NCBI GenBank assembly: GCA_000996245.1
Contig: LBYP01000010.1
Location: 1-51,463, forward strand
Reading direction: 5' to 3'
From: Parcubacteria group bacterium GW2011_GWA2_40_23
Lineage (GTDB): Bacteria > Patescibacteriota > Patescibacteriia > UBA11705 > JABHMO01
Length of the DNA stretch: 51,463 nucleotides
Shown: positions 1,881-50,413 of the stretch, piece after piece
Layout: every line of letters begins with the position of its first letter
How positions within the stretch are numbered: the first letter of the stretch is position 1
The notes under the pieces: generated by a model
Told to the model about the DNA's origin: nothing
Database searches by the model: none
What the model saw: only the letters and a program-made list of their open reading frames with translations
Program-made: the position numbers and the translations under genes

Positions 1881-1984
1881 TATAATAGAGTCACCCAGCA
1901 CCACTCGCTTCTCTCGGGTTCTGGGTAAACCAGTACTCCTGCACCACAAACTGCCTTTGGGTGCGGGGCAAGCCCAAAACACTT

Positions 1985-3436: not shown

Positions 3437-3441
3437 AATTT

Positions 3442-5630: not shown

Positions 5631-5663
5631 GTCAACTCCACTGTACGTGGGGTTGACTTTTTT
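5631..5663 (+). terminator. Intrinsic terminator of the Cys-rich gene; its 3-prime arm doubles as the -35 of the next promoter
   Basis: GTCAACTCCAC-TGTAC-GTGGGGTTGAC (11 bp with one G.T pair) followed by TTTTTT. Confidence 0.7.
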
Positions 5664-5680
5664 ATAGTTTGTGCTATAAT
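5653..5680 (+). promoter_or_regulatory. Sigma70-type extended -10 promoter for the GC-rich SPFH operon
   Basis: TTGACT (5653-5658), 16-nt spacer, TGc-TATAAT (5675-5680). AGGAGG at 5717-5722, ATG at 5728. Confidence 0.6.
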
Positions 5681-5727
5681 GTAAGGTCGTAAATTACGCG
5701 ACAAAACAACCGTCATAGGAGGACCCC

Positions 5728-6756
5728 ATGTTGACGTTCATTGGAATCGGAATCGTTGTGCTCGTCTTGCTGGGGTGGTACCTCAGCAAGTGCTTGGTCG
5801 TCACCGAGGCCGCGACCTACACAGTCGTCGGTCTCTTGGGAAAGAGCCCCACGAAAAGCCTGACCCCACCCTTGAACCTCATTTGCTACCCGATCACACA
5901 GGTTATGGGCGTGATCACCACTGAAGTGCAACGGTACAACATGACCAACTGCACCCTCTCCTGCAAGATGACGGACCCGAGTGGCGGTCAAGGCATCGGC
6001 AAACTCTCGACCAAGGAAGTATCGCTGGCCTACCAGTTCTACTTCTGGACGCAGGCCGAGATCCGCGACAAGGACGCCACGGTCGTCCTCCCCCCGGGAT
6101 TCGGCATGGCGCTCCAGCTACAAAAGTTCTTCGAGTTCGTGGGGTTCCACGAGGCGAAGATCGACATTGCCAGCATGGAGGAGACCCTCAAAGACTCCCT
6201 CCAAGGAGCTTTCACACAGCACAGCAAGAGCTTGGAACTGGAGGCAGCCATCAACTTCCCCAAAGCCTCGCTCACGGAGATCAAAGACGCCCTCCAGAGG
6301 GAGTTCTGGGAAGATGGTCTGCCGGTGAAGGTGATCGTTCTGCAACGGAATGCCCCATTCGAAGCCCTCGACACACTTGGGAGAGCCATCGCTTCTCGGG
6401 CTGAGTCGCTGGCATTGCTGCCAGCCGAAGTGGCCAAGGCTGAGAATGCCCGCCGCCTGGCGGTCATCAAAGCCACCACCGACAGGGAAGTTGCAGGCAT
6501 CAAAGTTGAGACAACTCGACTCGAAGGAGAAGCCGAAGGTGCCAAGGTCAAGGTCCGAGTGGCCGCGATCATGGACGCCTACGGGCTCACTGTCATGCCC
6601 CCAGCTGAACGGATGGCTAATTACCTAAGCCTCGAAAGTCTCGAGGTATACAAAGTGATGGCCGCCAGCCCGAGCAGCAAAATGATCCTTGTGCCGACCG
6701 AACTGCTCTCAAGCATCGGTGGCGCACTGTCACACCTCACTGGAGTCAAACCATGA
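5728..6756 (+). CDS. SPFH/Band-7 (stomatin/prohibitin/HflKC-like) membrane protein, GC-rich
   Basis: N-terminal TM (FIGIGIVVLVLLGWYL). Ala/Glu-rich coiled region AEVAKAENARRLAVIKATTDREVAGIKVETTRLEGEAEGAKVKV. C-terminal YLSLESLEVYKVMAASPSSKMILVP resembles SPFH tails. Family call is from motif recall only. Confidence 0.55.
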   Translation: MLTFIGIGIVVLVLLGWYLSKCLVVTEAATYTVVGLLGKSPTKSLTPPLNLICYPITQVMGVITTEVQRYNMTNCTLSCKMTDPSGGQGIGKLSTKEVSLAYQFYFWTQAEIRDKDATVVLPPGFGMALQLQKFFEFVGFHEAKIDIASMEETLKDSLQGAFTQHSKSLELEAAINFPKASLTEIKDALQREFWEDGLPVKVIVLQRNAPFEALDTLGRAIASRAESLALLPAEVAKAENARRLAVIKATTDREVAGIKVETTRLEGEAEGAKVKVRVAAIMDAYGLTVMPPAERMANYLSLESLEVYKVMAASPSSKMILVPTELLSSIGGALSHLTGVKP

Positions 6757-7385
6757 AGCGAAGCACTGCACTCATTCTCTCGCTGATGCTCTTCGGAGTG
6801 GGTCTCGTCCTCGCGGACAACCTGCTCGACTGGAGTATGGGGTGGAAGATTGCAGTTGCGGTAGCGCTGGCACTCGTGCCGTTCTACTTCATCGGACGAG
6901 GTTCCGCTCCCACCACCCCCGGCACTACTACGACCCCCGCCGCAGCCATCACCTACCCAGGGCTAGACAAAGCCTGGATCTGGATCCTGACCATCCTCCT
7001 CGGAGGTCTGGTCCTCTACGGTGCTGTGTTCTGGGTCAGCGTCCCCATTCGCGACTTGGTCAGGGAAGCAGTTGCTACCCCGGACACACATATCGTGGAG
7101 AACGGCTTCCCGCGACACGATGCTCCGCGCCAGGAGCAGGACATCATTCCGCCGTTCAACAAGATCTTGTCTGCCGGCAAGACCTACCAGGTCTTCAAGC
7201 TGAAGCGGGGGGACATCTTCAACGTCACCCAGCTCTCGGCGCCGATCAGGTACAAGATCGAAAACCCTGTCGTGACAGGGTTCGCCCCGATCGACAACCC
7301 GATAAAAATTCGCGTGAACTACGATGGCAACCTACTGGTCGTCTCTACGGCCGGCAGGAACACCGTCATGATCGCGCGAGAATGA
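6753..7385 (+). CDS. Membrane protein with a beta-rich C-terminal domain, translationally coupled to the SPFH gene (position analogous to NfeD partners)
   Basis: ATGA start/stop overlap with the upstream gene. Three hydrophobic segments, a Pro/Thr linker, and a C-terminal half rich in beta-type residues. Same GC-rich composition as the SPFH gene. Confidence 0.55.
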   Translation: MKRSTALILSLMLFGVGLVLADNLLDWSMGWKIAVAVALALVPFYFIGRGSAPTTPGTTTTPAAAITYPGLDKAWIWILTILLGGLVLYGAVFWVSVPIRDLVREAVATPDTHIVENGFPRHDAPRQEQDIIPPFNKILSAGKTYQVFKLKRGDIFNVTQLSAPIRYKIENPVVTGFAPIDNPIKIRVNYDGNLLVVSTAGRNTVMIARE

Positions 7386-7389
7386 CAAA

Positions 7390-7425
7390 CCGCCCCGTTG
7401 CACATGCGACGGGGCGGTACTTTTT
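7390..7425 (+). terminator. Intrinsic terminator ending the first GC-rich block
   Basis: CCGCCCCGT-N10-ACGGGGCGG followed by TACTTTTT. Confidence 0.75.
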
Positions 7426-10253: not shown

Positions 10254-11126
10254 TTAGGACTGACGTACGGGCTTGAAGTTGTCGAGGATGCTCGCACGCG
10301 CCCAGAGACGGATGTACTTTTCGGTCTTCTCGGACCGGATGGACTGCTTGAGCAAGTTCTGTGCCACGACCAGCTCCGGGAAGATCATATGATCCAAATC
10401 AAGCCGCAAGAAGCGGTAGAGATCCGGTCCGACCTTGAAGGAGGTCCTCTGGACCAAAAGCTTCTCCGTCAGCTCGAAGAGCATCTGAACTGCGGGATCC
10501 GTGTTCGCGGGATCAGGACGCACACGCGCCTTGAAGATGTCGATCTGCTCGAGGGCGTGCATCGCCAGTTCGTGATCTACGATCGTGATCGTGTTCACGC
10601 GCGCCATCACTCGACGCCGTCCATCGGTACTGGTGAAAGTCACCTGCGTACGCAAACGACCCTTGGCATCGAACAAATGCGGGAAAACGTGCGCCGTAAC
10701 GTAATTTTCACGCGCACCACTGGCTTGCACCAACGCTGCATTCAACGCGAAAACCTGGTTCACGATCTCGTCGTTCAAAGCACAGCGCGCCTTCTCGGCG
10801 TCCATGACACGATCGAGCTCGCTCTTCAGGGCATCGCGATTCCGCTGTTCCTCGGCCAGCTGTTCACGCAGTTCATCACGACGACGCGTCAGCTCCGGAT
10901 CCTTCTCATCGAAGGTGTCGATGACAGCATGAAGCTCTTTCTCTCGCTTGGTACCGTGCCGAGTAAGGTGACGCAGATCATGCACTGCCTTCTTGTACCG
11001 CCGGTGCCACGTTGTCCAAGAACCACGCGCTTGGGCTTCGAGCTTCTTCAGCTGCTCGAGCTTCTTGTCCAGTACCGCCAGACCTTCTTGCAGCGTTCCG
11101 ATCACGGTTTTCTTGCCTTGTCCCAT
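10254..11126 (-). CDS. GC-rich hypothetical cytoplasmic protein with an N-terminal coiled coil (single-gene island between tRNA genes)
   Basis: Start chosen at MGQGKK (ATG 11126), preceded by GGAGG with a 7-nt spacer. Balanced composition, own promoter and terminator. The C-terminal LLKQSIRSEKTEKYIRLWAR region loosely recalls Mu-like phage DUF3164 proteins; this is unverified recall. Confidence 0.6.
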   Translation of the reverse strand: MGQGKKTVIGTLQEGLAVLDKKLEQLKKLEAQARGSWTTWHRRYKKAVHDLRHLTRHGTKREKELHAVIDTFDEKDPELTRRRDELREQLAEEQRNRDALKSELDRVMDAEKARCALNDEIVNQVFALNAALVQASGARENYVTAHVFPHLFDAKGRLRTQVTFTSTDGRRRVMARVNTITIVDHELAMHALEQIDIFKARVRPDPANTDPAVQMLFELTEKLLVQRTSFKVGPDLYRFLRLDLDHMIFPELVVAQNLLKQSIRSEKTEKYIRLWARASILDNFKPVRQS

Positions 11127-11170
11127 GAGTAACCTCCATAACTCTACAGTGGAACGCACTCGAACTAGCT

Positions 11171-18932: not shown

Positions 18933-18964
18933 AAAAAATGTTTAAACTGTATATATTTTAGCCT

Positions 18965-19093
18965 AAATTTACGAATAGTACAAATTATTTGGATGTTACG
19001 AATTACTGCTTACCAATAACCTAAATTTCTATTTAACAATCAAATCCAGATAGTAATTCGTAAGTTCAACTTCATGTAGCTATTCGTAAATTT
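18965..19093. repeat. Nested inverted-repeat element of the TACGAAT word family, complete copy
   Basis: Outer arms AAATTTACGAATAG / CTATTCGTAAATTT (14 bp, perfect). Inner arms TTACGAATTACT / AGTAATTCGTAA (12 bp, perfect). Confidence 0.85.
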
Positions 19094-19103
19094 AGCGAAG
19101 ACG

Positions 19104-19132
19104 TTGACAAAAAACGCGAAAAATAATAAGGT
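19104..19132 (+). promoter_or_regulatory. Promoter of cassette P1
   Basis: TTGACA, 17-nt spacer, TAAGGT. The same TTGACA-N17-TAAGNT form is seen at 21392 and 24065. Confidence 0.5.
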
Positions 19133-19175
19133 TTTGTCATGAGCGGAGAAAGTAAAAACCACGTTGAGGCAAAAC

Positions 19176-19982
19176 ATGTTCTTCATCCTCTTTTTGCTAG
19201 CATTAGTCGGAGTTGTGTTGTTCATCGTCGGAGTAACCGAACACAAGGAACAAGTCGGCACTCTTGGCTTAGCCCTGGTTCTTATCTGTGCAATCCTCGC
19301 TCTGATCTTGCCGAAAGAGGCACAGGCTCAGACTGCCACCTGCACCGGCGACAGCTGGATCGGCAACGTCTGCCAGAGTGGTGGAGTGAACCAATCCAAA
19401 GAACCTTCAATCTCCTCCCACCAAGTCAGCTACAACACCGGCGAGTACTCGGTTATCGCACAGCCAGGAAGCTGCAACGACAAGACCTGCTGGTACACGA
19501 TCATCGTGTATGCTAAAAGCGGGATCATCACAGCCATGTTCGAGAACAACTACACGCTCATCGAAGCAATTTCTCCTGGTTGTTGGAAGTTGCAACAGAC
19601 GGACGAGTTCATAGGTCTCGCGGGCTTGCCAAATGACGCCGGACCGTTCATGCCGCTCGTCATCTGCAAACGCGAGGGTCTTTACTACGACGGCACGGAT
19701 AAAGAACTTGCACCGTTCCTCAAAGAACGCCTCGACAAGATCCTCTGTGCCACGCGCGACTGCCGAGATGCAAGAACCTGCGTGAACGATGTGAAGATGA
19801 AAGCGCTCATCGTCGAGCTGCACATCATCCAGATGATCTTGTGGAAAGCTGGTTGGAAAATTGCCTTGCCCGAAGGTTGGCATGGTGGCTTGAACCAAGG
19901 TGAGATAAACCGTTTGACGCATGACGTCGAGCGCATCATCAACATCCGTTTCCAAGGTCACCTGCCTTCGACCTCTCGATGA
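19176..19982 (+). CDS. GC-rich secreted/membrane paralog P1 (uncharacterised family)
   Basis: ATG 19176 is preceded by GAGG. Hydrophobic N-terminus ending AQAQ. Shares blocks with P2-P4: VSYNTGEYSVIAQPGSC..C.Y.I, GCWKLQQTDEFIGL, VICKREG. Confidence 0.75.
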   Translation: MFFILFLLALVGVVLFIVGVTEHKEQVGTLGLALVLICAILALILPKEAQAQTATCTGDSWIGNVCQSGGVNQSKEPSISSHQVSYNTGEYSVIAQPGSCNDKTCWYTIIVYAKSGIITAMFENNYTLIEAISPGCWKLQQTDEFIGLAGLPNDAGPFMPLVICKREGLYYDGTDKELAPFLKERLDKILCATRDCRDARTCVNDVKMKALIVELHIIQMILWKAGWKIALPEGWHGGLNQGEINRLTHDVERIINIRFQGHLPSTSR

Positions 19983-19993
19983 AGGAGAAAACC

Positions 19994-20104
19994 ATGGACG
20001 ACAACAACGCTCCGATCACCGGCTGGAGCATCCTGAAGTTCATCGGCTTGCTCATCTTCTGTGCATGGCTGTTCAAGTGCTTTTGCCAGCTCATCGCTGG
20101 CTAG
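19994..20104 (+). CDS. 36-aa single-TM mini-protein S1
   Basis: AGGAG RBS 7 nt upstream. MDDNNAPITGWSILKFIGLLIFCAWLFKCFCQLIAG. GC-rich. Followed at once by a terminator. Below the ORF-track size cutoff. Confidence 0.5.
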   Translation: MDDNNAPITGWSILKFIGLLIFCAWLFKCFCQLIAG

Positions 20105-20111
20105 ACCCTCG

Positions 20112-20150
20112 CCCCCACAATCGACATCGGTTGTTGGGGGTATTTATTTA
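20112..20150 (+). terminator. Intrinsic terminator after S1
   Basis: CCCCCACAA-N10-TTGT(T)GGGGG followed by TATTTATTT. Confidence 0.7.
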
Positions 20151-20228
20151 CTATGATTACCCTGATTACGAGGTGATTACTATGATTAGTTTGGGAAATA
20201 AAAAAATGTTTGTTTGCTTGTTTCTTTT

Positions 20229-20250
20229 CCCGCCGCTCGCGAGCAGCGGG
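20229..20250. repeat. GC mini-hairpin with CTCGCGAG core, present in module 1 and absent from module 2
   Basis: CCCGCCGCTCGCGAGCAGCGGG. A similar hairpin, CCCCGCTTCTCGCGAGAGGCGGGG, occurs at 43898-43921. Confidence 0.75.
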
Positions 20251-20362
20251 ATTTGTTTATTTTAATATGAGGAATGATTAACAGTTCGATTTGATGTCGG
20301 GCTCGCTTAGACCGCGAAGTGAGGCAGGCGAATTAATATTTAGTAGTGGCTTAGAACAATTC

Positions 20363-20392
20363 CGTACGTGCAGGTCGCGACCTGCACGTACG
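20363..20392. promoter_or_regulatory. Perfect 30-bp palindrome upstream of the P2 promoter (candidate operator)
   Basis: CGTACGTGCAGGTCG|CGACCTGCACGTACG, 54 nt upstream of the -35. No T-run follows. Second copy at 22997-23026 has one central mismatch. Confidence 0.6.
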
Positions 20393-20445
20393 AGACCAAT
20401 TTCGAGTTAATTAATGTAATTTTAGACAAAAAGTACTGACAACGA

Positions 20446-20474
20446 TTGACAAAACATTTTATTTGTGCTATCAT
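20446..20474 (+). promoter_or_regulatory. Extended -10 promoter of cassette P2
   Basis: TTGACA (20446-20451), 17-nt spacer, TGc-TATCAT (20469-20474). Confidence 0.65.
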
Positions 20475-20504
20475 GTGAGTAACAAACCTGCCTGAGGGCA
20501 CACC

Positions 20505-21233
20505 ATGCGGAAGATCATCGAAGCCACCGTCCTCGCCCTGTGCGCCATCGCCGCGATCCTGGTCATGGCCACCCCGGCCAAGTGCCAGACCAACACCTGC
20601 CCCTGCGCCATCGCCGACTGCCCGCCCTGCGACGAGTCGTCGCCCTACAACGCGACCCGCGCCGCCGAATCCGAAGAGGGCATCCAGACCTACACCAGCA
20701 ACAGGTTCCAGGTCAAAGCAACACCCCTCTGCGGAGGCTCCGGTTGCACCTACGCCATCGAAGTCTCGCGACTCGATGGAAAACACGAAGTCCTGTTCCG
20801 GTTCCTCAACCTGCTGTCAGGGATCACTGTCCTGAACGAAACCTGTGTGCTCATCCAGAGCACCAAGGACTTCAACGGCATCGACATGTTGCCCGAGCTC
20901 TACGGACCGTCGATCGGGATAGTTCTCTGCAAGGAAGGAAAAAACTTCGTCGAGAAGACCGCCTCGTTCATGGGCAATTTCTTGCGTGATCAAATCTCCG
21001 GACTGGAAGCCTGGCACGACACGTTGGTCGACAACCCCAGGGTGCTGAAGTCGCTCATCATCAAAGCTATGGCCATCAAGGAGCTGTTCTACCGCGAAGG
21101 ACTTCAGCCTCCCAAGATGCCAAAGATGGACGCCGACATCGCCAAGCTCGACAGCAAGACCTACAAGAGAATCGAGCTCGAAATCATCAAGCGCTGCAAC
21201 CAGCGCATGCTTTACCGGGGTCTCGCGAACTAG
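20505..21233 (+). CDS. GC-rich secreted/membrane paralog P2 (uncharacterised family)
   Basis: 242 aa. Hydrophobic N-terminus. QTYTSNRFQVKATPLCGGSGCTYAIEV, TCVLIQSTKDFNGI, VLCKEG, IKELFYREGLQPP, C-terminal RMLYRGLAN. Confidence 0.8.
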   Translation: MRKIIEATVLALCAIAAILVMATPAKCQTNTCPCAIADCPPCDESSPYNATRAAESEEGIQTYTSNRFQVKATPLCGGSGCTYAIEVSRLDGKHEVLFRFLNLLSGITVLNETCVLIQSTKDFNGIDMLPELYGPSIGIVLCKEGKNFVEKTASFMGNFLRDQISGLEAWHDTLVDNPRVLKSLIIKAMAIKELFYREGLQPPKMPKMDADIAKLDSKTYKRIELEIIKRCNQRMLYRGLAN

Positions 21234-21255
21234 TCGCGCCCCGCGTGCTACACAG

Positions 21256-21288
21256 CTGCTACCTTCTTCCCGGGGGGTAGCAGTTTTT
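21256..21288 (+). terminator. Intrinsic terminator after P2
   Basis: CTGCTACC-N12-GGTAGCAG followed by TTTTT. Confidence 0.75.
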
Positions 21289-21348
21289 CTATACTACGAA
21301 TTACTAATCGTCTACAAATCTACTAATAGCTACGAATAGCTTCATAAA
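21289..21348 (+). repeat. TACGAAT/TACTAAT word block following the P2 terminator
   Basis: ctatactacgaattactaatcgtctacaaatctactaatagctacgaatagcttcataaa. Near-identical copy at 23914-23973. Confidence 0.85.
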
Positions 21349-21391
21349 TAAGAAATTTTATCTAAGATTAAACAAAAAAACATCATAACCA

Positions 21392-21420
21392 TTGACAAAA
21401 CAATATGTTAGTGCTAAGTT
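21392..21420 (+). promoter_or_regulatory. Promoter of cassette P3
   Basis: TTGACA, 17-nt spacer, TGc-TAAGTT. Confidence 0.55.
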
Positions 21421-21451
21421 TTAATCAATTCATTTCCCTAAGGGGAAGATC

Positions 21452-22135
21452 ATGCCGATCGCTCGTCCCTTCGACAAATCCTTCTGGCTGGCAGTCATCC
21501 TGTTCTCCATCGCTCTCGCCTGTGTGATCTTCTCGTTCACTCCACGTGACGCCAACGCCCAGACCGTGACGATTCGCGTATCCTACACCAGCAACGGTTA
21601 CATCGTGAAGGCCTCGCCTTCATGCGTCAACTCCAACTGCGTGTACGTCATCAGCATCACGCAGAAGAACAACGACACGATCATGACCTTGCAGAACGAC
21701 AGCCCGTTCGTGGAAGTGCTGGACGACAAGTGCATCCGCATCAATTCGACGAACGACTTCATGGGCATCGGCGACGCCGAACACGAGTTCGGTCGCTGGA
21801 TCCCGCAAGTCGTGTGTGTGGAAGGTAGGATCTACGCCGACCGCACCGCTTCGCGCCTCGAGAAAGAGCTCCGGCTCCGAGTGGCGGACATCGAGTCTAC
21901 ACTCGCGCTCGATGACATCATGGGCAGCTACTGCGACGAGCCGTGGCGGTCAAATGCCACCTTCGCCAAGATCGTGGAGTTGAAGGCCATCCAGCACATG
22001 TTCATTCGCGAGAACCTAACGCCCCCAGCCATGCCAATCCTCGGTCTCCTCGATAAAATGTTCTCCGAAGATCTCGACACCATCATGCGTCAGCTCTTAG
22101 AGGAACGCCTGACCTATCGAGGGCTCGGGTCGTGA
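21452..22135 (+). CDS. GC-rich secreted/membrane paralog P3 (uncharacterised family)
   Basis: 227 aa. Signal-like N-terminus ending ANAQ. VSYTSNGYIVKASPSCVNSNCVYVISI, KCIRINSTNDFMGI, VVCVEG, IQHMFIRENLTPP, C-terminal RLTYRGLGS. Confidence 0.8.
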   Translation: MPIARPFDKSFWLAVILFSIALACVIFSFTPRDANAQTVTIRVSYTSNGYIVKASPSCVNSNCVYVISITQKNNDTIMTLQNDSPFVEVLDDKCIRINSTNDFMGIGDAEHEFGRWIPQVVCVEGRIYADRTASRLEKELRLRVADIESTLALDDIMGSYCDEPWRSNATFAKIVELKAIQHMFIRENLTPPAMPILGLLDKMFSEDLDTIMRQLLEERLTYRGLGS

Positions 22136-22184
22136 TCAACTTCTGGAACAAGTACCGTTCACCAACACCGAACCGGAGGTTTAC

Positions 22185-22628
22185 ATGTTTCCTTCGTGGA
22201 AAGAGATCGCCATTAGCTTATTCCTCGTCTCGCTAATGCTGTCCATCCTTGTCGGCCTTCACTCTATTAGCCGGGAAAAGGAGTCGACCGACACTCCCCT
22301 CTCCGCAGAAGCCTGCGAGACCGCTCTGGTCTACATGGACTTGCACCTCGACCTCGAAGCCAATCCGCCAGGTGTGAACCACTCGATCCAGAAGGACTTC
22401 GATGGTGTCCTTCTGCTGCGCAAGCAGTGTCAAGAGAGCAGCGACCGCCTGGCGCTGGTCAAGACCTACGTGACCAATGAACGGCTCGCGAAGTTGCTCG
22501 AAAATTCCTGGGACGCTACTCGAGAACTCCACCAAGTCGTAACGACTGGAGAAGCACTCATGAAGCAGCTTCCGCCCCAAGGGAAAAACTTCAAGGAGTG
22601 GCACTGCGAACAGTGCAACCAGCCCTGA
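22185..22628 (+). CDS. GC-rich N-terminally anchored hypothetical protein
   Basis: 147 aa. GGAGG RBS. One N-terminal TM (IAISLFLVSLMLSILVGL). C-terminal CEQC. Confidence 0.6.
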   Translation: MFPSWKEIAISLFLVSLMLSILVGLHSISREKESTDTPLSAEACETALVYMDLHLDLEANPPGVNHSIQKDFDGVLLLRKQCQESSDRLALVKTYVTNERLAKLLENSWDATRELHQVVTTGEALMKQLPPQGKNFKEWHCEQCNQP

Positions 22629-22657
22629 GACTAGCAACCGACAGACAGGAGGCCACC

Positions 22658-22771
22658 ATGTTCATCGTCAGCTCCGTCCCCCAGGTTTCCCAGGCTGGCG
22701 GCGTGGTCATCATCATCCTGCTGCTGCTCCTCATCTTAGCTTCCAGTCAGAGCAAGCGCTGGCAAGCCTAA
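22658..22771 (+). CDS. 37-aa single-TM mini-protein S2
   Basis: AGGAGG RBS. MFIVSSVPQVSQAGGVVIIILLLLLILASSQSKRWQA. Occupies the same position as S1, immediately before the shared terminator/module. Confidence 0.5.
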   Translation: MFIVSSVPQVSQAGGVVIIILLLLLILASSQSKRWQA

Positions 22772-23140
22772 CTCTCGCCCCCACAATCGACATCGGTTGT
22801 GGGGGTATTTTTTTACCATGATTACTACTATGATTACCCTGATTACGAGGTGATTACTATGATTAGTTTGGGAAATAAAAAATGTTTGTTTGCTTGTTTA
22901 TTTTAATATGATTAACAACTCGATTTGATGTCGGGCTCGCTTCGACCGCGAAGTGAGGCAGGCGAATTAATATTTAGAAGGGGCTTAGAACAATTCCGTA
23001 CGTGCAGGTCACGACCTGCACGTACGAGACCAATTTCGAGTTAATTAATGTAATTTTAAACAAAAAGTGCTGACAACGATTGACAAAACATTTTATTTGT
23101 GCTATCATGTGAGTAACAAACCTGCCTACTGGGGAACACC
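22772..23140 (+). repeat. AT-rich intergenic module, copy 2
   Basis: Terminator CCCCCACAA/TTGTGGGGG plus T7 (22778-22814). Five GATTAC/GATTAG words (22820-22866). Palindrome 22997-23026. Promoter TTGACA 23080-23085 and TATCAT 23103-23108. Confidence 0.9.
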
Positions 23141-23860
23141 ATGAAGTCCGAGACCCAGAAAGAAATCGTGTTCTGGAGCGGTGTTTTCGCGGGCCTGGCC
23201 GTGATCCTGTGCCTGACCCTCCTCCCCTCCAAATGCACCCGCCAGACCTTCCCCAACCCGCCCAGCAGCGAACGTGCGGAAGAGACGGGCGGAGCCTATG
23301 CTGTCCGCGACCAGCTGAACAAGAAGTTCTTAGTCAGCTGGGATCCGAGCTACGGCATGAGCAGCTACAGCTACACCCTACGGATCGTCCGCAACAACGG
23401 CTCGCACGAGATGGTGGTCGCGTTCTACAACAACGACTACACCGTCCGAGTGAAGAACAACGGGCGCTGCATCGAACTGCCGATCACGCGCGACTACTGC
23501 GCGATCGGTGACGTACCCATGTCCGACTGCCCCATCGTCCCCATGGTCTTCTGCCGCGAAGGTGACAACTGGGTGGACGTGACCGCACAGCTCATGGGCA
23601 AAACCCTGCACGAGCGACTGCTCAACCTGGAACGGCTCACGGCCGTCTGGGAGGAGACCTCCGACACGCAGCGCAAAGCCATGATCGTCGAGAGCATGGC
23701 TCTCCGTGAGCTGTACTACCGTCGCGGCCTCGTCCCGCCCACCACCACGCTCATGACCAACCTTCTGACCTACTTCGGGGAAAAGTACTACAACGAAGTA
23801 GAGACGGGGGTCATGGAGGCAACGAGCAATCGCCTGCTCTACCGGGATCTCGCGAAATAG
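23141..23860 (+). CDS. GC-rich secreted/membrane paralog P4 (uncharacterised family)
   Basis: 239 aa. TM anchor VFWSGVFAGLAVILCLTLL. RCIELPITRDYCAIG, VFCREG, LRELYYRRGLVPP, C-terminal RLLYRDLAK. Confidence 0.8.
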   Translation: MKSETQKEIVFWSGVFAGLAVILCLTLLPSKCTRQTFPNPPSSERAEETGGAYAVRDQLNKKFLVSWDPSYGMSSYSYTLRIVRNNGSHEMVVAFYNNDYTVRVKNNGRCIELPITRDYCAIGDVPMSDCPIVPMVFCREGDNWVDVTAQLMGKTLHERLLNLERLTAVWEETSDTQRKAMIVESMALRELYYRRGLVPPTTTLMTNLLTYFGEKYYNEVETGVMEATSNRLLYRDLAK

Positions 23861-23881
23861 TCGCTGACCCATGCTACACAG

Positions 23882-23913
23882 CTGCTACCTTCTTCACAGG
23901 GGGTAGCAGTTTT
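23882..23913 (+). terminator. Intrinsic terminator after P4
   Basis: CTGCTACC-N12-GGTAGCAG followed by TTTT. Same stem as at 21256. Confidence 0.75.
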
Positions 23914-24001
23914 CTATACTACGAATTACGAATCGGCTACGAATCTACTAATAGTTACGAATAGCTTCATAAAATTGATGGTTACGAATTAGAATTTCTA
24001 A

Positions 24002-24029
24002 GTAGGGGTTCAAAATTTTGAACCCCTAC
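24002..24029. repeat. Perfect 28-bp palindrome upstream of the cupin promoter
   Basis: GTAGGGGTTCAAAA|TTTTGAACCCCTAC. Similar in form to the central hairpin of the four-way-junction elements. Confidence 0.8.
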
Positions 24030-24064
24030 CAAAAAGACGTTTAAAAATCGACAACGATGACCGA

Positions 24065-24093
24065 TTGACAAAACCACCCAAAAACAGTAAGCT
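24065..24093 (+). promoter_or_regulatory. Promoter of the cupin gene
   Basis: TTGACA, 17-nt spacer, TAAGCT. 5-prime UTR hairpin GATGCC-TCT-GGCATC. GGAGG at 24124. Confidence 0.5.
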
Positions 24094-24133
24094 CTTTTGA
24101 TGCCTCTGGCATCGCAAACAACTGGAGGTTCCC

Positions 24134-24649
24134 ATGTCCACGCCCCAAGTGTTCGTAAAAACACCTGCGATCCGTATCGTCGAAACGCTCTTTGGCGGTC
24201 GCGCGTACTTGGTCGAACTGCCCGTCGATGCCCACACAGTCGTGGTCGAGGGCACCAGCTTCCCGCCCGAACTGAACGTTACCGAGTTCTCGCCCCGCGT
24301 CTACTCCATCGTCGGCAAAAAGCTGAGCGGTTCGCACGCACACCGCGCTGGCACCGAAGACGAGATCATGCTCGTGGTCGCCGGCGAAGCGACGGTGCAC
24401 CTCTGGGACGAGAGTGGCAAGCACGAAGAAGTCACCCTCCGCCCCGCGACCGACGGCCAGAAGTTCTGGGCGCTGTTCATCCGCTCCGGTATCTGGCACA
24501 CCGTACGCTACAAGCCCCACACGGCGCTGAACGTCGTCGCCTCGGTCCACTACGACCGCGAGTACTACGTCGTAGATCCAGCCGACTACTTCACCGCCGA
24601 AGGCCACGCGCTGTACCTGCACGACATCATTTCCCTTAACGGAAACTGA
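24134..24649 (+). CDS. GC-rich cupin, WxcM/FdtA-like (sugar 3,4-ketoisomerase-like fold)
   Basis: 171 aa. SGSHAHRAGTEDEIMLVVAGEA..V.L.D..G, LFIRSGIWHTVRY, NVVASVHYDREYYVVDPADYF. These match the remembered FdtA pattern (HAH.., WH, AS..YD..DY). Confidence 0.5.
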   Translation: MSTPQVFVKTPAIRIVETLFGGRAYLVELPVDAHTVVVEGTSFPPELNVTEFSPRVYSIVGKKLSGSHAHRAGTEDEIMLVVAGEATVHLWDESGKHEEVTLRPATDGQKFWALFIRSGIWHTVRYKPHTALNVVASVHYDREYYVVDPADYFTAEGHALYLHDIISLNGN

Positions 24650-24688
24650 GCAACTCCCCACGTCTGCGACTAGATCGCAGTGGGCTTA

Positions 24689-24730
24689 CCCCGCACACAG
24701 TCATCTGTGGTGCGGGGGTTTCATTTTTGC
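24689..24730 (+). terminator. Intrinsic terminator closing the third GC-rich block
   Basis: CCCCGCACACAG-TCAT-CTGTGGTGCGGGG followed by TTTCATTTTT. Confidence 0.7.
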
Positions 24731-31859: not shown

Positions 31860-32022
31860 AATATTTACTAATTACTAATACTATTACTAATTTACTAATG
31901 ATTACTAATTATTAGTTACGATTTGTAAATTAGTAGCAAATTCGTAATTAGTAATTAAAGAAACATGCTGTCTGCGATTATAACAATATTATTTAATCTT
32001 GTAAAGAGTTAAGTTGCGAATA

Positions 32023-32123
32023 GGGCATTTTTATTAGGATATTACGAATTATTACTTAGCAATTGAAACTTAACAGTAATTCGTAACATCAACTTTATGA
32101 CGCTATTCGTAACAAAAAACGAG
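32023..32123. repeat. Nested inverted-repeat element of the TACGAAT word family
   Basis: Outer arms GTTGCGAATAG / CTATTCGTAAC. Inner arms ATTACGAATTATTACT / CAGTAATTCGTAAC. Confidence 0.75.
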
Positions 32124-34811: not shown

Positions 34812-35009
34812 AAGTTTCTAAATTTAATGCTAAAATTTCCCCAAAACTTGAAAATGTGCTATCCTTTAATTATTAAAGTGATTTGTGTGGATAATCGACT
34901 ACATATTTACAAGCGGGGTTTACGAGACCCCGTTTTATTTTTGGAGTTTATAGCTTCATTTTAGCAAAACAACAAATACCTGTCAACATTTTGACGCTTT
35001 TAAAAATAT

Positions 35010-35038
35010 TTGACAAAAGAAATTTTAAAAGTTATACT
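35010..35038 (+). promoter_or_regulatory. Promoter of the LexA-like gene (transcript essentially leaderless)
   Basis: TTGACA (35010-35015), 17-nt spacer, TATACT (35033-35038). ATG at 35048. Inverted repeat GTCAA-CATT-TTGAC at 34982-34995, just upstream. Confidence 0.55.
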
Positions 35039-35047
35039 GGATATATA

Positions 35048-35695
35048 ATGAAACGCAAAAATATGCACCAAATTCAACAAAAAATATTAAATTTTGCCGA
35101 TAAACTAAATCTAAAACGAGACGGACTTAGACAGATTGGCAGATTGGTTGGTGAACCACACCCTTTTACAGTTTCTTATCACTTAAAAAAACTTGAAGAA
35201 AAAGGTTTTATTAAAATTGATAAAAAAACTGGCGAAATAAAAAAAATAAAAAACGATGGACCACAAAAAGGTTTATTTTTGGCGATTCCCGTTCTTGGAT
35301 CTGCAAACTGCGGAGATGCAAACATATTTGCCGAAGAAAATTTAGAGGGCTATATCAAGGTGTCAAAAAATATTATTAAGGCTGGCGAGGGTTTGCTTGC
35401 AATTAAAGCCTCTGGTAATTCAATGAATAAAGCCGATGTTAATGGTCAAAATATTGAAGACGGAGATTATGTTATTGTTAATTCAAAAAAACAACCTCAG
35501 CCGAATGATTATGTTTTAGCAATTATTGATAATTGTGCAAATATAAAAAAGCTATTATTGGATTCTAAAAATAAAGTTATTTCTTTAATGTCAGAATCAA
35601 CAGAAAATCATCCAATTATTTTTATTCATGAAACAGATAAATTTTTAATAAATGGGGTAGTCAAATATATAATTAAAAAACCGATTGTTAATTGA
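35048..35695 (+). CDS. LexA/CI-like repressor: winged HTH plus S24 self-cleaving peptidase domain
   Basis: The ORF-track start (TTG 34991) lies upstream of the predicted promoter's -35 element, so ATG 35048 is preferred. wHTH (GEPHPFTVSYHLKKLEEKGFI). S24 motifs GNSM and a downstream Lys (NIKKLL). Confidence 0.65.
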   Translation: MKRKNMHQIQQKILNFADKLNLKRDGLRQIGRLVGEPHPFTVSYHLKKLEEKGFIKIDKKTGEIKKIKNDGPQKGLFLAIPVLGSANCGDANIFAEENLEGYIKVSKNIIKAGEGLLAIKASGNSMNKADVNGQNIEDGDYVIVNSKKQPQPNDYVLAIIDNCANIKKLLLDSKNKVISLMSESTENHPIIFIHETDKFLINGVVKYIIKKPIVN

Positions 35696-35752
35696 TCATA
35701 AATTTTCTTTTTTGGCGTTTTTTAGCTATAATATAATTATAAAATACCACAT

Positions 35753-38077
35753 ATGAACGAAAGAAAAACTGAAATAATCACGAGAGATCACTTTTCTAAA
35801 TTTTTGGATACTGTTTATATTGAAGAGCAACGCTCGGATAATCCAAAAATTGATAAGTTGTTAAAATCTGCCTCAAAAAAAGGTGGTGGGAAAGGTTACC
35901 CTGAATTTATTATTAGTTACAAAACTAATCCTGATTTATTGATTGTTATTGAATGCAAAGCCGATGTAATTAAACACGAAAGCAAAGATCGTGATAAATA
36001 TGCGGATTTTTCGGTTGATGGTGCATTGCTTTACGCTTCTTATTTATCTAAAGGTTTTGATGTTTTAGCAGTCGCAGTTAGCGGAGAAACAAAACAGGCA
36101 TTAAAAGTTTCTCACTTTTTACATTTGAAAGACGAGAAAAAAGCTACTCAAATTTTTGGAGATAAATTCTTATCCGTTGATGATTATTTGAACGGATATT
36201 TAAAAAGTCCTGAAAAATTTAGACAAGATTATAATTCACTTTTAGATTTTACAAAACAACTTAACGAAAAATTGCATACTTACAAAATTCTTGAAAGTCA
36301 AAGAAGCTTACTCATTAGCTCAATTCTAATTGCTTTAGAAAACACTGCTTTCAAAAGATCTTATGCTTCGCACAAGAAAGCTGAAAATCTCGCAGTTTCT
36401 CTGATTCAAACAGTTTCCGATGAATTAGAAAGTGCAAATATCACAGGGGAAAAATTAGAGAATCTAAATACTCAATTTAGTTTTATTAAAACCGATACTT
36501 CTTTGTCAAAAAAAGAAAATGTTTTGAAAGAAATTATTGACGAAATTGACGAAAATATAAATGCCTTTATCAAAACTCACAGATATTTTGATGTTTTAGG
36601 TCAGCTTTATATTGAATTTTTGAGATACGCAAACAGCGATAAAGGTTTAGGGATTGTTTTAACGCCCCCACACATTACAGAGCTTTTTGCAGACTTGGCA
36701 CAAGTAAATAAAAATTCTATTGCTTATGATAACTGTACTGGAACGGGCGGATTTTTGATTAGTGCGATGAAGAAAATGATTGCAGACGCAAAAGGCGATG
36801 AAACAAAAATCAAAGAAATAAAATCAAAACAACTTATCGGAACTGAATACCAATCGCATATTTTTGCTTTAGCAGTTTCAAATATGTATATCCACCAAGA
36901 CGGAAAGACAAATATCATAAATGGCAGTTGTTTTGATGAAGAAGTTATTGAAGAAGTAAAAACGAAGAAACCAACTGTTGGCTTTTTAAATCCGCCTTAC
37001 AAAGACAAAAAAGGAGATACTGAAGAGTTAAAATTTGTGTTAAATAATTTAGAATGTTTAGTTGATGGTGGGATATGTGTGGCTATAATTCCACTAAGTT
37101 CTGTCATAGCGAAAAATGGCATTAAGCTTCAGTTGAAAGAACAATTGCTGCAAAATCATACATTAGAAGCCATCTTGTCAATGCCAGAGGATCTTTTCCA
37201 TAATTCAAAGGTTTCACCTGTTTCTGTCGTTGTTGTCTTTACCGCCCACAAACCACATCCCGCAGGTAAAAAAACATGGTTAGGCTATTTTAGAAATGAT
37301 AATTTTGTGAAGACTAAAGACAAAGGACGTATAGACCTATTGGGGACATGGGAAGAAACAAAAAAAGAGTGGCTTACATTATATTTCAATAGAGAAACAA
37401 AAAAAGATATAAGTCTAACGAGAGAATTAAAACCACAAGATGAGTGGTGCATAGAGGCATATTTAACATATGATTACAATGAAATTACTGCGTATAAACT
37501 TAAAGATAAAATACAAAAATATTTAGCATTTCGATTACTCCATGATTTGCTTGATTTCAAAATTGATAAACCAAATAAACTTAAATATGTTAACAAATTA
37601 ATTCCATTACATGAGATTTTTGATGTAACGAATGGATTGGCGTCTTCAAATGTAGAAGTATTAGAGTCTCCTGAAAATCCTACTGATATTAGATATATTA
37701 GACCATCTCAAACTTATGAAGGAAGTATAGCTGGATATGTAGATAAAACCTTCATAGACGATAAATACATTTATCCTGACAATACACTGTATGTTTCTAC
37801 GGATGGACAAGGAAGTCACACTTATTCTTATGTCTCATCTTTTGAGTTTATCCCAAATAGCAATATTTCTGTCTTAATGCCAAAGAGAAAAATGTCCGTA
37901 CAAGAAAAAATTTATTATGCACTTTGTGTTTCAAGTAATAGATATAAGTTTTCTTATGGCAGAAAGCCTAAAGGCGATAGATTAAAGGATATATTGTTAC
38001 CTTTGTATCCTCCTGAATATGTTTACGGTGATATTTTTAATGAAATCTTTGATAATTGGAAAAAAATAGTAAAATAA
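35753..38077 (+). CDS. Fused restriction-modification enzyme (type IIG-like): N-terminal PD-(D/E)xK nuclease, N6-adenine methyltransferase, C-terminal specificity domain
   Basis: PEFIISY...DLLIVIECK nuclease motif. MTase motif I DNCTGTGGFL and motif IV FLNPPY. About 200-aa C-terminal domain (IFDVTNGLASS ...) resembling TaqI/Eco57I-type specificity domains. Hairpin ATTTTGGG..CCCAAAAT follows the stop. Confidence 0.75.
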   Translation: MNERKTEIITRDHFSKFLDTVYIEEQRSDNPKIDKLLKSASKKGGGKGYPEFIISYKTNPDLLIVIECKADVIKHESKDRDKYADFSVDGALLYASYLSKGFDVLAVAVSGETKQALKVSHFLHLKDEKKATQIFGDKFLSVDDYLNGYLKSPEKFRQDYNSLLDFTKQLNEKLHTYKILESQRSLLISSILIALENTAFKRSYASHKKAENLAVSLIQTVSDELESANITGEKLENLNTQFSFIKTDTSLSKKENVLKEIIDEIDENINAFIKTHRYFDVLGQLYIEFLRYANSDKGLGIVLTPPHITELFADLAQVNKNSIAYDNCTGTGGFLISAMKKMIADAKGDETKIKEIKSKQLIGTEYQSHIFALAVSNMYIHQDGKTNIINGSCFDEEVIEEVKTKKPTVGFLNPPYKDKKGDTEELKFVLNNLECLVDGGICVAIIPLSSVIAKNGIKLQLKEQLLQNHTLEAILSMPEDLFHNSKVSPVSVVVVFTAHKPHPAGKKTWLGYFRNDNFVKTKDKGRIDLLGTWEETKKEWLTLYFNRETKKDISLTRELKPQDEWCIEAYLTYDYNEITAYKLKDKIQKYLAFRLLHDLLDFKIDKPNKLKYVNKLIPLHEIFDVTNGLASSNVEVLESPENPTDIRYIRPSQTYEGSIAGYVDKTFIDDKYIYPDNTLYVSTDGQGSHTYSYVSSFEFIPNSNISVLMPKRKMSVQEKIYYALCVSSNRYKFSYGRKPKGDRLKDILLPLYPPEYVYGDIFNEIFDNWKKIVK

Positions 38078-50393: not shown

Positions 50394-50413
50394 ATTTACT
50401 AACCCAAAAACAT

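Follow-up and report, generated by a model that had tools for sequence, protein, structure and literature searches.

A probable array of recombining expression cassettes for a rare, clade-restricted family of predicted exported proteins in a patescibacterial chromosome

A run of GC-rich genes of unrecognised family in an AT-rich bacterial chromosome raises the question of whether the block is imported DNA, an assembly error or a resident locus. The window analysed here, a stretch of 51,463 nucleotides, comes from a very small groundwater bacterium whose genome is AT-rich and which belongs to the Patescibacteria (CPR), close to Falkowbacteria; the best matches of its AsnRS were in Patescibacteria, Falkowbacteria and Komeilibacteria MAGs. 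Between asnS and rluD, at 19.1–24.7 kb, five transcription units encode four paralogs (par1 to par4), a 147-aa membrane protein, two membrane peptides of 36–37 aa and an FdtA-like cupin, all on the plus strand. GC content rises from 0.27–0.33 at 18.9–19.2 kb to 0.50–0.68 within the ORFs, and falls back past 24.7 kb. The first-pass annotation had given 60–70% GC from 19.1 kb onwards; the rise is present, but those values are peaks, the ORF means being 0.52–0.62, and intergenic stretches within the block stay at 0.34–0.45. The window also contains genes for signal peptidase I and a DsbA-like oxidoreductase.

Sharp compositional junctions are the only feature that suggests a contig joined from AT-rich and GC-rich organisms. 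An independent ENA contig was found to be 99.995% identical to the window over 20.7 kb, spanning all junctions with a single SNP, and the array is therefore not a chimera. Related ENA, JGI, Logan and NCBI contigs carry the same AT/GC mosaic in the same slot. GC content alternates gene by gene, with AT-rich promoters between. As far as assemblies show, this explanation is refuted.

Pairwise BLASTP confirmed the homology of the four paralogs (E 2e-9 to 3e-32, identity 22–32%). Subfamily A is represented by par1 (19176–19982; 268 aa; GC3 0.66; HMM E 8e-78), and subfamily B by par2 (20505–21233; 242 aa; GC3 0.83), par3 (21452–22135; 227 aa; GC3 0.80; ortholog P0007 in the relative L001) and par4 (23141–23860; 239 aa; GC3 0.85; ortholog P0002 in L007). 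The general architecture begins at the N-terminus with a signal peptide or membrane hairpin that carries an AxA↓Q site. A disordered linker then leads into a ~90-aa beta domain, in which up to two Cys pairs are conserved, and a ~85-aa helical domain whose C-terminal tail is conserved. The N-terminus of par1 forms two hydrophobic helices that end in ...PKEAQA↓QT, ahead of the linker and the two domains. In par2, a Cys-rich linker connects the signal peptide to a beta domain containing C76, C81, C114 and C142, and the C-terminal domain, of four helices, closes with RMLYRGLAN. The par3 signal peptide ends ...RDANA↓QT, and par4 has Tyr where the first Cys pair would stand. The first three conserved blocks of the first-pass annotation occur in all four proteins, but '(E/R)(G/N)L.PP' and 'R(M/L)(L/T)YR(G/D)L' are confined to par2, par3 and par4; the subfamily A proteins end in '...R(F/L)..H(V/L)P'.

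Among 27 members examined, all have N-terminal hydrophobic segments, followed directly in most by a small-x-small site (AQA↓Q, ANA↓Q). C142 is present in 27/27, C114 in 23/27, C76 and C81 each in 19/27, and TxDF in 22–23. From these sequences, family members are predicted to be Sec-exported, with AxA↓Q as a signal-peptidase-type site; none of the sequences showed a recognisable wall-anchoring motif. AF2 models of par1 and par2, calculated from shallow alignments of 7–9 sequences, agree on the architecture across both subfamilies (pLDDT 79.8 and 80.2; pTM 0.70 for par2). Foldseek searches returned no PDB match at E<=0.001 for either model, and no BFVD match for the par2 model.

The family HMM recovers every member from independent genomes at E 1e-45 or better. 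No match to the family was found in Pfam, NCBIfam, PHROG, PADLOC or PDB sequences. Only 5 matches were found among 5.8 billion clusters, and HMMER, run exhaustively against 1.84 billion representatives, returned 25, of which 3 were repeat-protein false positives, placing the family at ~20 clusters. The family is rare, previously undescribed and clade-restricted. The absence of HMM or structural matches to a known family bears out the initial description of unrecognised, Cys-containing, predicted exported proteins in separately expressed cassettes.

In at least eight lineages, members are found in the neighbourhood of asnS, rluD and gmk. The asnS–rluD slot is occupied in the window and L010, L001, L005 (with L135), L011, L093 and a 758-kb JGI contig, while in L091 and L097 members lie directly past rluD. 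AsnRS is 63–92% identical across the sampled lineages, showing that the family has stayed near this slot since before they diverged. Copy number ranges from one to at least five, and single members with their own promoter are found elsewhere in L136 and L008. The gene order of the array is already present in L001.

All five units start from a near-consensus promoter, carry a Shine-Dalgarno site and end at an intrinsic terminator. TTGACA boxes stand at 19104, 20446, 21392, 23080 and 24065, in every case 17 nt ahead of a TAnnnT -10 box, with a TGn extension in four of the five. Reading of the sequence and module comparison assigned P1 (19104–19132; TAAGGT) to par1 and its peptide, and P3 (21392–21420; TAAGTT) to an operon of par3, the 147-aa ORF and the second peptide. 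P2 (20446–20474; TATCAT with TG extension; 11/12 matches) is followed by a conserved 5'UTR; P4 (23080–23108) is of the same type, with its 5'UTR converted to the par2 version, and P5 (24065–24093; TAAGCT) precedes the cupin gene. The signals that had been ascribed to every gene (promoter, RBS, terminator) are thus present, but the three ORFs behind P3 share one promoter and one terminator, giving five units rather than one per gene.

The non-coding modules recur. Terminator module T1 (20105–20148; CCCCCACAA...TTGTTGGGGG plus a T-run, hairpin 20111–20148) is found again as T1' (22771–22814, hairpin 22777–22814) and twice in L001. T2 (21246–21348; GCTGCTACC...GGTAGCAG plus a T-run, hairpin 21254–21290, then CTACGAAT-type boxes) recurs at 23872–23973 within T2' (23872–23990, hairpin 23880–23915), which carries five TACGAAT boxes. 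The spacer at 20149–20445 (z -4.9), comprising GATTAC-type repeats, an extra hairpin (20228–20251) and a perfect 30-nt palindrome (20363–20392), is duplicated at 22815–23079 with 96–100% identity and has no match in Rfam. On its left, the array is bounded by a clade-wide intergenic repeat between asnS and P1, a palindromic element of ~130 nt with 2+2 TACGAAT boxes (18963–19095), and the block closes with a terminator hairpin, CCCCGCACACAG...CTGTGGTGCGGGG plus a T-run (24689–24730). Terminator, spacer and promoter modules are 94–100% identical within the window, with a period of ~2.63–2.68 kb, and the ORFs between them are ~30% identical. A tandem duplication of a two-cassette unit, as first proposed, fits this framework, but proteins at equivalent positions are not closest relatives (par1 belongs to subfamily A, par2 to par4 to subfamily B). 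Intragenomic conversion together with cassette replacement explains the repeated framework better.

Comparison with relatives revealed the same mosaicism. Gene 11152 of L001 combines a promoter, 5'UTR and signal peptide of par2 type with a subfamily A mature domain. The 5'UTR of par4 in the window matches that of par2 in the window, and not that of its own L001 ortholog. In L135, the par2 ortholog has a different signal peptide and a mature domain 86% identical to that in the window; dS between the two genes is 0.34, against 1.6–2.5 for the flanks, which could reflect synonymous constraint or recent transfer. These comparisons show that mature domains have been exchanged independently of a promoter/5'UTR/signal-peptide module and a terminator module, and that, within any one genome, the non-coding modules stay almost identical. 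Family proteins also evolve rapidly, with dN of 0.15–0.23 versus 0.013–0.049 in flanking genes (3–17 times) and dN/dS of 0.15–0.43 versus 0.02–0.05; since dN/dS is below 1, positive selection is not demonstrated.

The GC excess was found almost wholly at third codon positions, with GC3 of 0.66–0.85 in array genes versus 0.30–0.33. All ORFs of the block, including the peptides, the 147-aa ORF and the cupin, show coding-type GC3 periodicity. Across the family, GC3 ranges from 0.35 to 0.96, with GC1 of ~0.52 and GC2 of ~0.41, and host genes have GC3 of 0.26–0.39. A rival reading takes the block for a foreign island, recently acquired from a GC-rich source or carried on a prophage, ICE or plasmid, with a GC content slowly ameliorating. 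Such an origin would account for the sharp contrast with the flanks, the differing content of close relatives, the single members at other loci, and the par2 mature domain being closer between lineages than the flanking genes. Further GC3-rich ORFan genes in the window adjoin tRNA genes, one with a weak PHROG match (phrog_846, 6.7e-6), and complete amelioration could explain the members whose GC3 is host-like. Against this, GC1, GC2 and amino-acid usage of the array genes are host-like, the codon choices (CTC>=CTG, CCC>CCG) are unlike those of typical high-GC bacteria, and the intergenic parts are AT-rich with host-type promoters. A Pfam scan of the large ORFs of the window revealed no integrase, transposase or reverse-transcriptase domain, and no direct repeats bracket the block. 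No family member was found among phage records, plasmid records or IMG/VR, or in any GC-rich genome among the 1.84 billion representatives, all contexts examined being AT-rich, and the same slot is filled across lineages as divergent as their AsnRS indicates. Finally, orthologs whose flanks differ by a dS of ~0.4–1.4 both hold GC3 of 0.66–0.93, and the synonymous changes that were polarised in par1 are evenly balanced between S>W (12) and W>S (9), where decay toward host composition would predict ~82% S>W (P=0.008). A foreign island is thus quite improbable, and the GC richness is shown to be a gene-specific synonymous-site bias that is actively maintained.

We know of no established explanation for the GC-ending codon bias of these genes. 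A GC-favouring fixation bias tied to frequent cassette recombination is offered tentatively; counting against it, the visibly homogenised intergenic modules stay AT-rich, and the effects of GC-biased conversion reported in bacteria are, to our knowledge, far below a shift from 0.3 to 0.9. Selection on synonymous GC is nearly as likely, though itself doubtful: C/G-ending codons would set expression, mRNA stability or condition-dependent translation independently of recombination. Consistent with such selection, the bias is gene-specific, with an unbiased GATase gene (GC3 0.25) lying between GC3-rich genes in L093, and follows the coding strand whichever DNA strand a gene lies on. It peaks for NNC over NNU (0.80–0.93 versus 0.23–0.31), leaves amino-acid usage unchanged, and is accompanied by lower dS in the most biased genes and by near-consensus extended -10 promoters and strong terminators on all biased genes. 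However, ribosomal protein L19 and other core genes are unbiased (GC3 0.28), so this is not the ordinary high-expression codon set of the organism. G-ending purine codons are raised too, and GC1 and GC2 climb slightly with GC3 across members, which points to a general GC pressure. Counting against either account, the bias is absent in some members (GC3 0.35 in P0016 of L097, 0.51 in P0024 of L091).

The small ORFs, all present as first annotated, invite comparison with toxin or bacteriocin loci; the paralogs would then act as diffusible antagonistic effectors, with the small membrane proteins protecting the producer. A 36-aa single-TM peptide (19994–20104; GC3 0.87), predicted to be co-transcribed with par1, has a 37-aa homolog after the par1 ortholog in L001–L003, and two of the five units place a small TM ORF after an exported protein. 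Like polymorphic toxin loci, which are typically fast-evolving, copy-number-variable and mosaic, the array shows all three properties. The partners, however, are inconstant: par2 and par4 have none, the ORF after the par1-type gene of L005 is an unrelated one of 49 aa, and the subfamily A gene of L011 has no GC3-rich small ORF after it. The 147-aa protein (22185–22628; GC3 0.71), with an N-terminal TM helix, matched no known family in HMM searches, and the same slot in L001 holds a non-homologous 222-aa protein. The 37-aa TM peptide (22658–22771), consisting of ..VPQVSQAGG, a hydrophobic stretch and KRWQA, exists as an ORF, but the region 22670–22815 matches L001 13374–13520 at 77.6%, corresponding to the C-terminal membrane anchor of that 222-aa protein, so that this peptide may be a remnant and not a gene in its own right. 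HMM and fold searches revealed no toxin, peptidase, nuclease or pore-forming domain. A toxin function is therefore unlikely.

The last gene of the block encodes a 171-aa cupin of the FdtA/WxcM C-terminal type (24134–24649; GC3 0.81; Pfam FdtA 1.5e-9, 38 bits versus a cutoff of 23). In L011 and L135, too, a cupin is found in this position before rluD. Although it is conserved together with the family and its genes are as rich in GC3, the cupin lacks a signal peptide, which the surface-protein function considered below leaves unaccounted for.

Taken together, the block is probably a chromosomal array of five self-contained, recombining expression cassettes for exported proteins of a clade-restricted family. 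The conserved modules would act as homology arms for recombination, so that exported domains could be swapped, duplicated or imported with expression and export intact. The products would be abundant, extracellular or surface-located, and may be under diversifying pressure. Judging from their architecture and evolutionary pattern, they are probably surface or partner-interaction proteins, which would mediate contact between this tiny bacterium and a partner cell, a host cell or the environment.

The window is AT-rich, with GC contents mostly between 0.31 and 0.41 in 1-kb windows, and carries three GC-rich patches. In 200-nt windows, the GC content is 0.27–0.33 at 18.9–19.2 kb, 0.50–0.68 within the open reading frames (ORFs) of 19.2–24.7 kb, 0.34–0.45 in the gaps between these ORFs, and about 0.36 beyond 24.7 kb. 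Comparison with an independent ENA assembly (L010, ERZ27254745) revealed identity to positions 10505–31233 except for one SNP, a nonsynonymous change in par2 at 20595, and thus argues against a chimeric assembly. Every ORF named by the first-pass annotation is present, including the paralogs par1 (19176–19982), par2 (20505–21233), par3 (21452–22135) and par4 (23141–23860), small ORFs of 36 aa (19994–20104), 147 aa (22185–22628) and 37 aa (22658–22771), and a cupin (24134–24649). The four large ORFs are homologous, as had been proposed, with pairwise BLASTP E-values of 2e-9 to 3e-32 and identities of 22–32%. Five conserved blocks had been described for all four; the first three occur throughout par1–par4, but the last two ('..L.PP' and 'R.LYRGL') are restricted to par2–par4, since par1 is a member of a second subfamily, whose ending is '..H(V/L)P..'. 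In a distance tree, this subfamily A (par1-like) separates from subfamily B (par2–par4).

Five promoters of the form TTGACA-17 nt-TAnnnT are present, at 19104, 20446, 21392, 23080 and 24065. Four of the five start with ATTGACAAAAC, and four have a TGn-extended -10 box. Together with five terminators, each a stem-loop followed by a T-run, they bound five transcription units: par1 with the 36-aa peptide (promoter 19104), par2 (20446), par3 with the 147-aa transmembrane (TM) protein and the 37-aa peptide (21392), par4 (23080), and the cupin (24065). Each of par1–par4 is a complete ORF served by a promoter, Shine-Dalgarno site and terminator. The proposal of a separate promoter and terminator for every gene thus holds at the level of the transcription unit, but not for units 1 and 3, which contain several genes. 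By eye, a small hairpin over the Shine-Dalgarno site of par3-type leaders seemed conserved; it was rejected because its stability does not exceed that of shuffled sequence (z about 0). The duplicated spacer 5' of par2 and par4 contains a perfect 30-nt palindrome, CGTACGTGCAGGTCGCGACCTGCACGTACG (20363–20392 and 22997–23026), which scores as a terminator on the minus strand, folds with a z of -4.9 and has no Rfam match. Rfam searches of the whole window at the gathering threshold, and of the island at E ≤ 1, returned only tRNAs and noise.

To place the paralogs, membership of a Pfam-A, NCBIfam, PHROGs or PADLOC family required a score that reached its curated cutoff, or a significant E-value. 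The best Pfam-A matches of par1–par4 had E-values of 0.048–0.061, under the cutoffs; the best NCBIfam match scored 23.7 bits against a cutoff of 110 and covered a TM segment only; PHROGs gave nothing apart from a weak match for par3 (E = 0.006); and PADLOC gave no match. A profile search of PDB sequences reached a best E-value of 0.34. With no significant match in these five collections, the initial description of the family as unrecognised stands: it is new, without a detectable relative. It is also rare. A word-indexed search of 5.8 billion clusters found five members, a second word-indexed protein search with a 23-sequence alignment gave fewer matches than the first, and an exhaustive HMMER scan of 1.84 billion representatives gave 25 hits at E ≤ 1e-3, three of which are repeat-protein false positives. 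Part of this rarity is due to annotation, since the public gene calls for L010 (8635–9457, 12705–13368 and 13537–14118) and for the related locus L001 (8774–9514 and 12312–13151) place antisense or out-of-frame ORFs over par1, par4, the cupin and others. Standard gene callers take these genes for antisense ORFs, and such families are therefore under-counted in protein databases. A metagenome scan with the promoter/5'UTR pattern gave 37 loci, of which only L099 and L111, from the same JGI study as L002, are real; the other 35 are at the estimated chance level. The most distant member, P0023 (E = 6e-7), is encoded at 2169–2849 of contig L095, near OmpA, GGDEF and TPR genes. This contig looks non-CPR, and the third-codon-position GC content (GC3) of the family gene, 0.47, equals that of its neighbours.

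AlphaFold2 models of par1 (pLDDT 79.8, pTM 0.65) and par2 (pLDDT 80.2, pTM 0.70) both show one or two N-terminal membrane helices and a disordered linker of about 30 residues, followed by a 7–8-stranded beta domain and a helical C-terminal domain. A known fold was defined by a Foldseek E-value ≤ 0.001 or a TM-score ≥ 0.5 to a PDB or BFVD structure. Against the PDB, neither model gave a match at E ≤ 0.001 (best E-values 0.29 and 0.14), the best match of the par2 model in BFVD had an E-value of 0.084, and the best TM-score relative to the query in the PDB and BFVD searches was 0.24. Among 27 members, Cys-142 is invariant, Cys-114 is present in 23, and Cys-76 and Cys-81 in 19 each, while TxDF, Pro-135, DxT and Arg-234 are kept in at least 80%. 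All 27 have hydrophobic N-terminal segments, which in most members run straight into a small-x-small site (AQA|Q, ANA|Q, AHA|Q or similar), consistent with the n-h-c organization and small residues at -3 and -1 by which a heuristic test recognizes Sec/signal peptidase I substrates. The window also encodes a signal peptidase I (50363–51211) and a DsbA-like thioredoxin (43939–44628), the machinery that exported, disulfide-bonded proteins would need. The extracytoplasmic, disulfide-bonded domain envisaged in the first-pass annotation is therefore a prediction well supported by sequence, through the hydrophobic N-termini and AxA-type sites, the conserved cysteines and these two genes.

The 37-aa ORF aligns to the C-terminal anchor of a 222-aa L001 protein. 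Sortase (C-terminal sorting-signal) substrates are recognized by a C-terminal motif, a hydrophobic helix and a basic tail; only the 37-aa ORF and the 222-aa protein have a C-terminal ..VSQAGG followed by a hydrophobic stretch and a basic tail, and the C-terminal tails of par1–par4 are conserved and polar, with no TM helix. Kinship between the 147-aa protein and the 222-aa protein that occupies its slot in L001 was rejected (E = 0.59), the N-terminal part of the latter being unrelated to it. That a cupin closes the array was confirmed by a match of its residues 56–154 to Pfam FdtA (PF05523, WxcM-like C-terminal; 38.2 bits against a cutoff of 23, E = 1.5e-9), and its relatives P0028–P0030 bear the same domain. 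It shares this domain with FdtA/WxcM-C/WbuC cupins, but its score for the WbuC subfamily (TIGR04366) is 23.9 bits, under the cutoff of 42, and no sugar-nucleotide pathway genes lie beside it. Its GC3 bias and promoter type are those of the array.

From the architecture, export signals, conservation pattern, locus dynamics and expression signals, we infer that this bacterium, of an episymbiotic type, would produce the paralogs in abundance at its surface or outside the cell, and that pressure from partners, competitors or phages would drive their diversification. The cupin looks cytoplasmic yet is co-conserved with the exported family, for which this reading gives no account. The main rival is a toxin/immunity function. 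The array resembles polymorphic toxin and bacteriocin loci in its conserved N-terminal export modules, swappable C-terminal parts, small membrane ORFs downstream and variable copy number, but it differs in that the mature domain as a whole forms a single conserved fold of two domains rather than a variable toxin tip. This reading is further weakened because the small, immunity-like TM ORFs occur in only some units and no toxin domain is recognizable.

The array lies between genes for AsnRS, AspRS, ScpA/B, PBP and a glycosyltransferase on the left and for RluD, the CCA-adding enzyme, Gmk, L19 and UvrA on the right. Among GTDB species representatives, the closest AsnRS sequences are from Patescibacteria MAGs of Falkowbacteria, Komeilibacteria and Parcubacteria, with identities of 62–77%, and 92% in one case (L011). 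The asnS–rluD interval holds the family in the window and L010, L001 and L002, L005, L011, L093 and a 758-kb JGI contig; L135, from the same Rifle study as L005, is the rluD-side end of such an array. The family directly follows rluD in L091 and L097, and two lineages have members at other loci (L008, after secDF; L136, between rpiB and ileS). A survey of 80 asnS-centred Patescibacteria loci found the family in just two, L011 and L016. Copy number ranges from one to at least five, and L011 has one gene of each subfamily and a cupin. The locus is ancient, evolves quickly and is built of modules.

Between the window and L001/L007, the paralogs show dN of 0.15–0.23 and dN/dS of 0.15–0.43, compared with 0.013–0.049 and 0.02–0.05 for six flanking genes. 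Within the window, non-coding modules repeat at 94–100% identity with a period of 2.63–2.68 kb, while identity among the ORFs between them is only about 30%. These modules are terminator T1, the spacer with the perfect palindrome, a promoter-plus-leader, and terminator T2 with TACGAAT boxes; L001 has the same terminator and promoter modules. L001 gene 11152 combines a promoter, leader and signal peptide of par2 type with a mature domain of subfamily A, the L135 par2 ortholog has an unrelated signal peptide on a mature domain that is 86% identical, and the window par4 leader resembles that of par2 in the window rather than that of its L001 ortholog. These three cases show that modules and mature domains recombine independently, so the suggested tandem duplication of a two-cassette unit fits the non-coding framework, but not its cargo. 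In L135, positions 32–2096 of this Rifle-aquifer contig carry the par2 ortholog, then two tandem cupins, then rluD. RluD and the CCA enzyme are 78–80% identical between L135 and the window, below the value for the par2 mature domain, and the dS of the par2 ortholog is 0.34, compared with 1.6–2.5 for its neighbours. This conservation suggests either recent cassette transfer or strong constraint. The locus is thus a plain example of cassettes exchanged module by module, in which the modules for expression and export are conserved.

The array is thus real and largely as first described; the family is new, and the kind of locus is familiar. It works in the manner of other multigene loci for variable exported proteins: frames are conserved, cores vary and conversion takes place. 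Variable surface or secreted families of reduced or host-associated bacteria, such as the Borrelia vls cassettes, which are much more GC-rich than their AT-rich genome, share with it tandem exported paralogs, fast protein evolution, a conserved framework around variable cores and evidence of conversion or recombination. However, vls and pilS systems have one expression site and silent, promoterless donors, whereas here every cassette has its own promoter, ribosome-binding site and terminator. Antigenic variation of this type was rejected, as all four paralogs are complete, self-promoted ORFs and there are no silent cassettes. In further contrast to vls, there are no short direct repeats around the variable segment, no sequence or fold similarity to the paralogs was found, and the variation is known from comparison between genomes rather than within one clone.

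Integron arrays likewise present a row of small, compositionally odd genes, mostly of unknown function, with palindromes between them and content that varies among relatives. Here, however, the genes are paralogs rather than unrelated cargo, the cassettes have their own TTGACA-17-TAnnnT promoters, and the palindromes are ordinary intrinsic terminators (GC stem and T-run) or operator-like repeats without the R'/R'' cores of attC. A Pfam scan of the large ORFs in the window found no IntI or other integrase or recombinase, and an integron was rejected. The same scan found no reverse transcriptase (RT) domain, and the repeats seen in the window are intergenic, with no TR/VR-like coding repeat, which argues against a diversity-generating retroelement. 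A 23S-rRNA-IVP/bAvd-like four-helix protein (42505–42873) stands alone, with no RT in the window. A prophage or ICE was rejected in the lack of an integrase, att sites and phage genes: no direct repeats bracket the island, its proteins have no significant PHROGs match, and neither tblastn against phage or plasmid records nor an IMG/VR scan gave a family match. A defence-system reading was also tested and rejected.

The composition of the island is a property of its synonymous sites. GC3 is 0.66–0.85 in the paralogs, 0.71–0.87 in the small ORFs and 0.81 in the cupin, compared with 0.28–0.37 in flanking genes, including that for ribosomal protein L19, while GC1 (about 0.52) and GC2 (about 0.41) of the island genes are near host values. 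Across lineages, family GC3 ranges from 0.35 (L097) to 0.96 (L001 gene 11152) with GC1 and GC2 nearly constant. In L093, a GATase gene at 0.25 is flanked by genes at 0.62–0.91, and in L136, a lone member at 0.69 sits amid genes at 0.26–0.42; the bias acts per gene. NNC is preferred over NNU (0.80–0.93 in biased genes compared with 0.23–0.31), G-ending purine codons are raised, though less than NNC, and the island genes use CTC at least as often as CTG and CCC more than CCG, unlike typical GC-rich bacteria. Most GC3-rich genes, whichever DNA strand they lie on, have more C than G at four-fold sites of the coding strand. Amino-acid usage resembles that of the host (FYMINK 0.256 compared with 0.309; GARP 0.226 compared with 0.210). 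In ortholog pairs with flank dS of about 0.4–1.4, both genes retain high GC3, and synonymous changes in par1, polarized with outgroup L005, comprise 12 GC-to-AT and 9 AT-to-GC events, whereas relaxation to host composition would predict about 82% GC-to-AT (P = 0.008, small sample). The retained GC3, host-like amino acids and balanced par1 changes argue against a decaying foreign relic and for a synonymous, gene-specific GC bias that is actively maintained. Literature searches that covered GC3 in Patescibacteria, GC-rich islands and Falkowbacteria gave no relevant result. As the cause of the bias, we tentatively rank recombination-linked GC-biased fixation first, at less than even odds; selection on synonymous GC for expression or mRNA stability is nearly as likely, and a circulating cassette pool or foreign origin is rather improbable.

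Three further ORFan genes in the window share this synonymous GC bias (GC3 0.69–0.76). A pair at 5728–7385 has a consensus extended -10 promoter (5655–5683) and a strong terminator (7392–7420); the third (10254–11159, minus strand) lies between tRNA-Leu and tRNA-Met and weakly matches phrog_846. In L008, from the lineage with P0017 and P0020, four small ORFans on the minus strand (1600–4500) form another GC3-rich cluster, which sits between secDF and a gene for a C39 peptidase, so the bias affects several ORFan sets in distant relatives.

Other elements of the window were also surveyed. TACGAAT(A/T) boxes are enriched (18 compared with 4.6 expected), forming palindromic intergenic elements at 100–175, 18963–19095 and 31935–32115, with further boxes at 7431/7469, 10200, 21295–21338 and 23920–23990. 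The element spans about 125 nt, carries two boxes in each orientation and recurs in L001, L005, L016 (four sites, one 5' of asnS), L079 and L029. A role as island borders or recombination sites was rejected: the boxes are present in L016, including upstream of its asnS, without a GC-rich island, which makes them an intergenic element found generally in the clade, probably as an operator array or REP-like repeat. Two large Cys-rich proteins (3403–5604 and 39155–41119) combine Dickkopf-like repeats with a membrane domain resembling type IV secretion pilin, and their codon usage is the normal one of the host. An AT-rich patch at 34991–38077 (GC 0.28–0.32), encoding a LexA/S24-like repressor and a 774-aa N6 DNA methylase, is possibly a separate acquired element. 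A RelA/SpoT-type ORF (240–1880; Pfam RelA_SpoT, HD_4 and TGS) is followed by a 491-aa ORF (1961–3436) that by eye looks like another RelA/SpoT homolog.

To a specialist, the surprising features would be the maintained gene-specific GC3 recoding and the module-wise exchange of cassettes. It is conceivable, though unlikely, that they reflect a new CPR diversity system, in which standardized promoter/leader/signal-peptide and terminator modules serve as recombination handles that swap new-fold exported domains within and between genomes, with GC3 recoding as a functional mark or consequence. Such a system might owe its GC3 to unusually strong bacterial GC-biased conversion or to a codon expression programme of the exchange set. 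The locus is in any case a natural experiment on base composition, with neighbouring genes at GC3 of 0.25–0.33 and 0.8–0.96 in one small genome, host-like protein composition and no sign of decay; selection and biased gene conversion as sources of bacterial GC can therefore be tested against each other with population metagenomes. CPR/Patescibacteria are thought to live attached to other cells and, to our knowledge, the proteins mediating these contacts are mostly unknown. The locus provides a clade-specific candidate set of proteins that are predicted to be exported, abundant-looking and fast-diversifying, with no structural relative detected.
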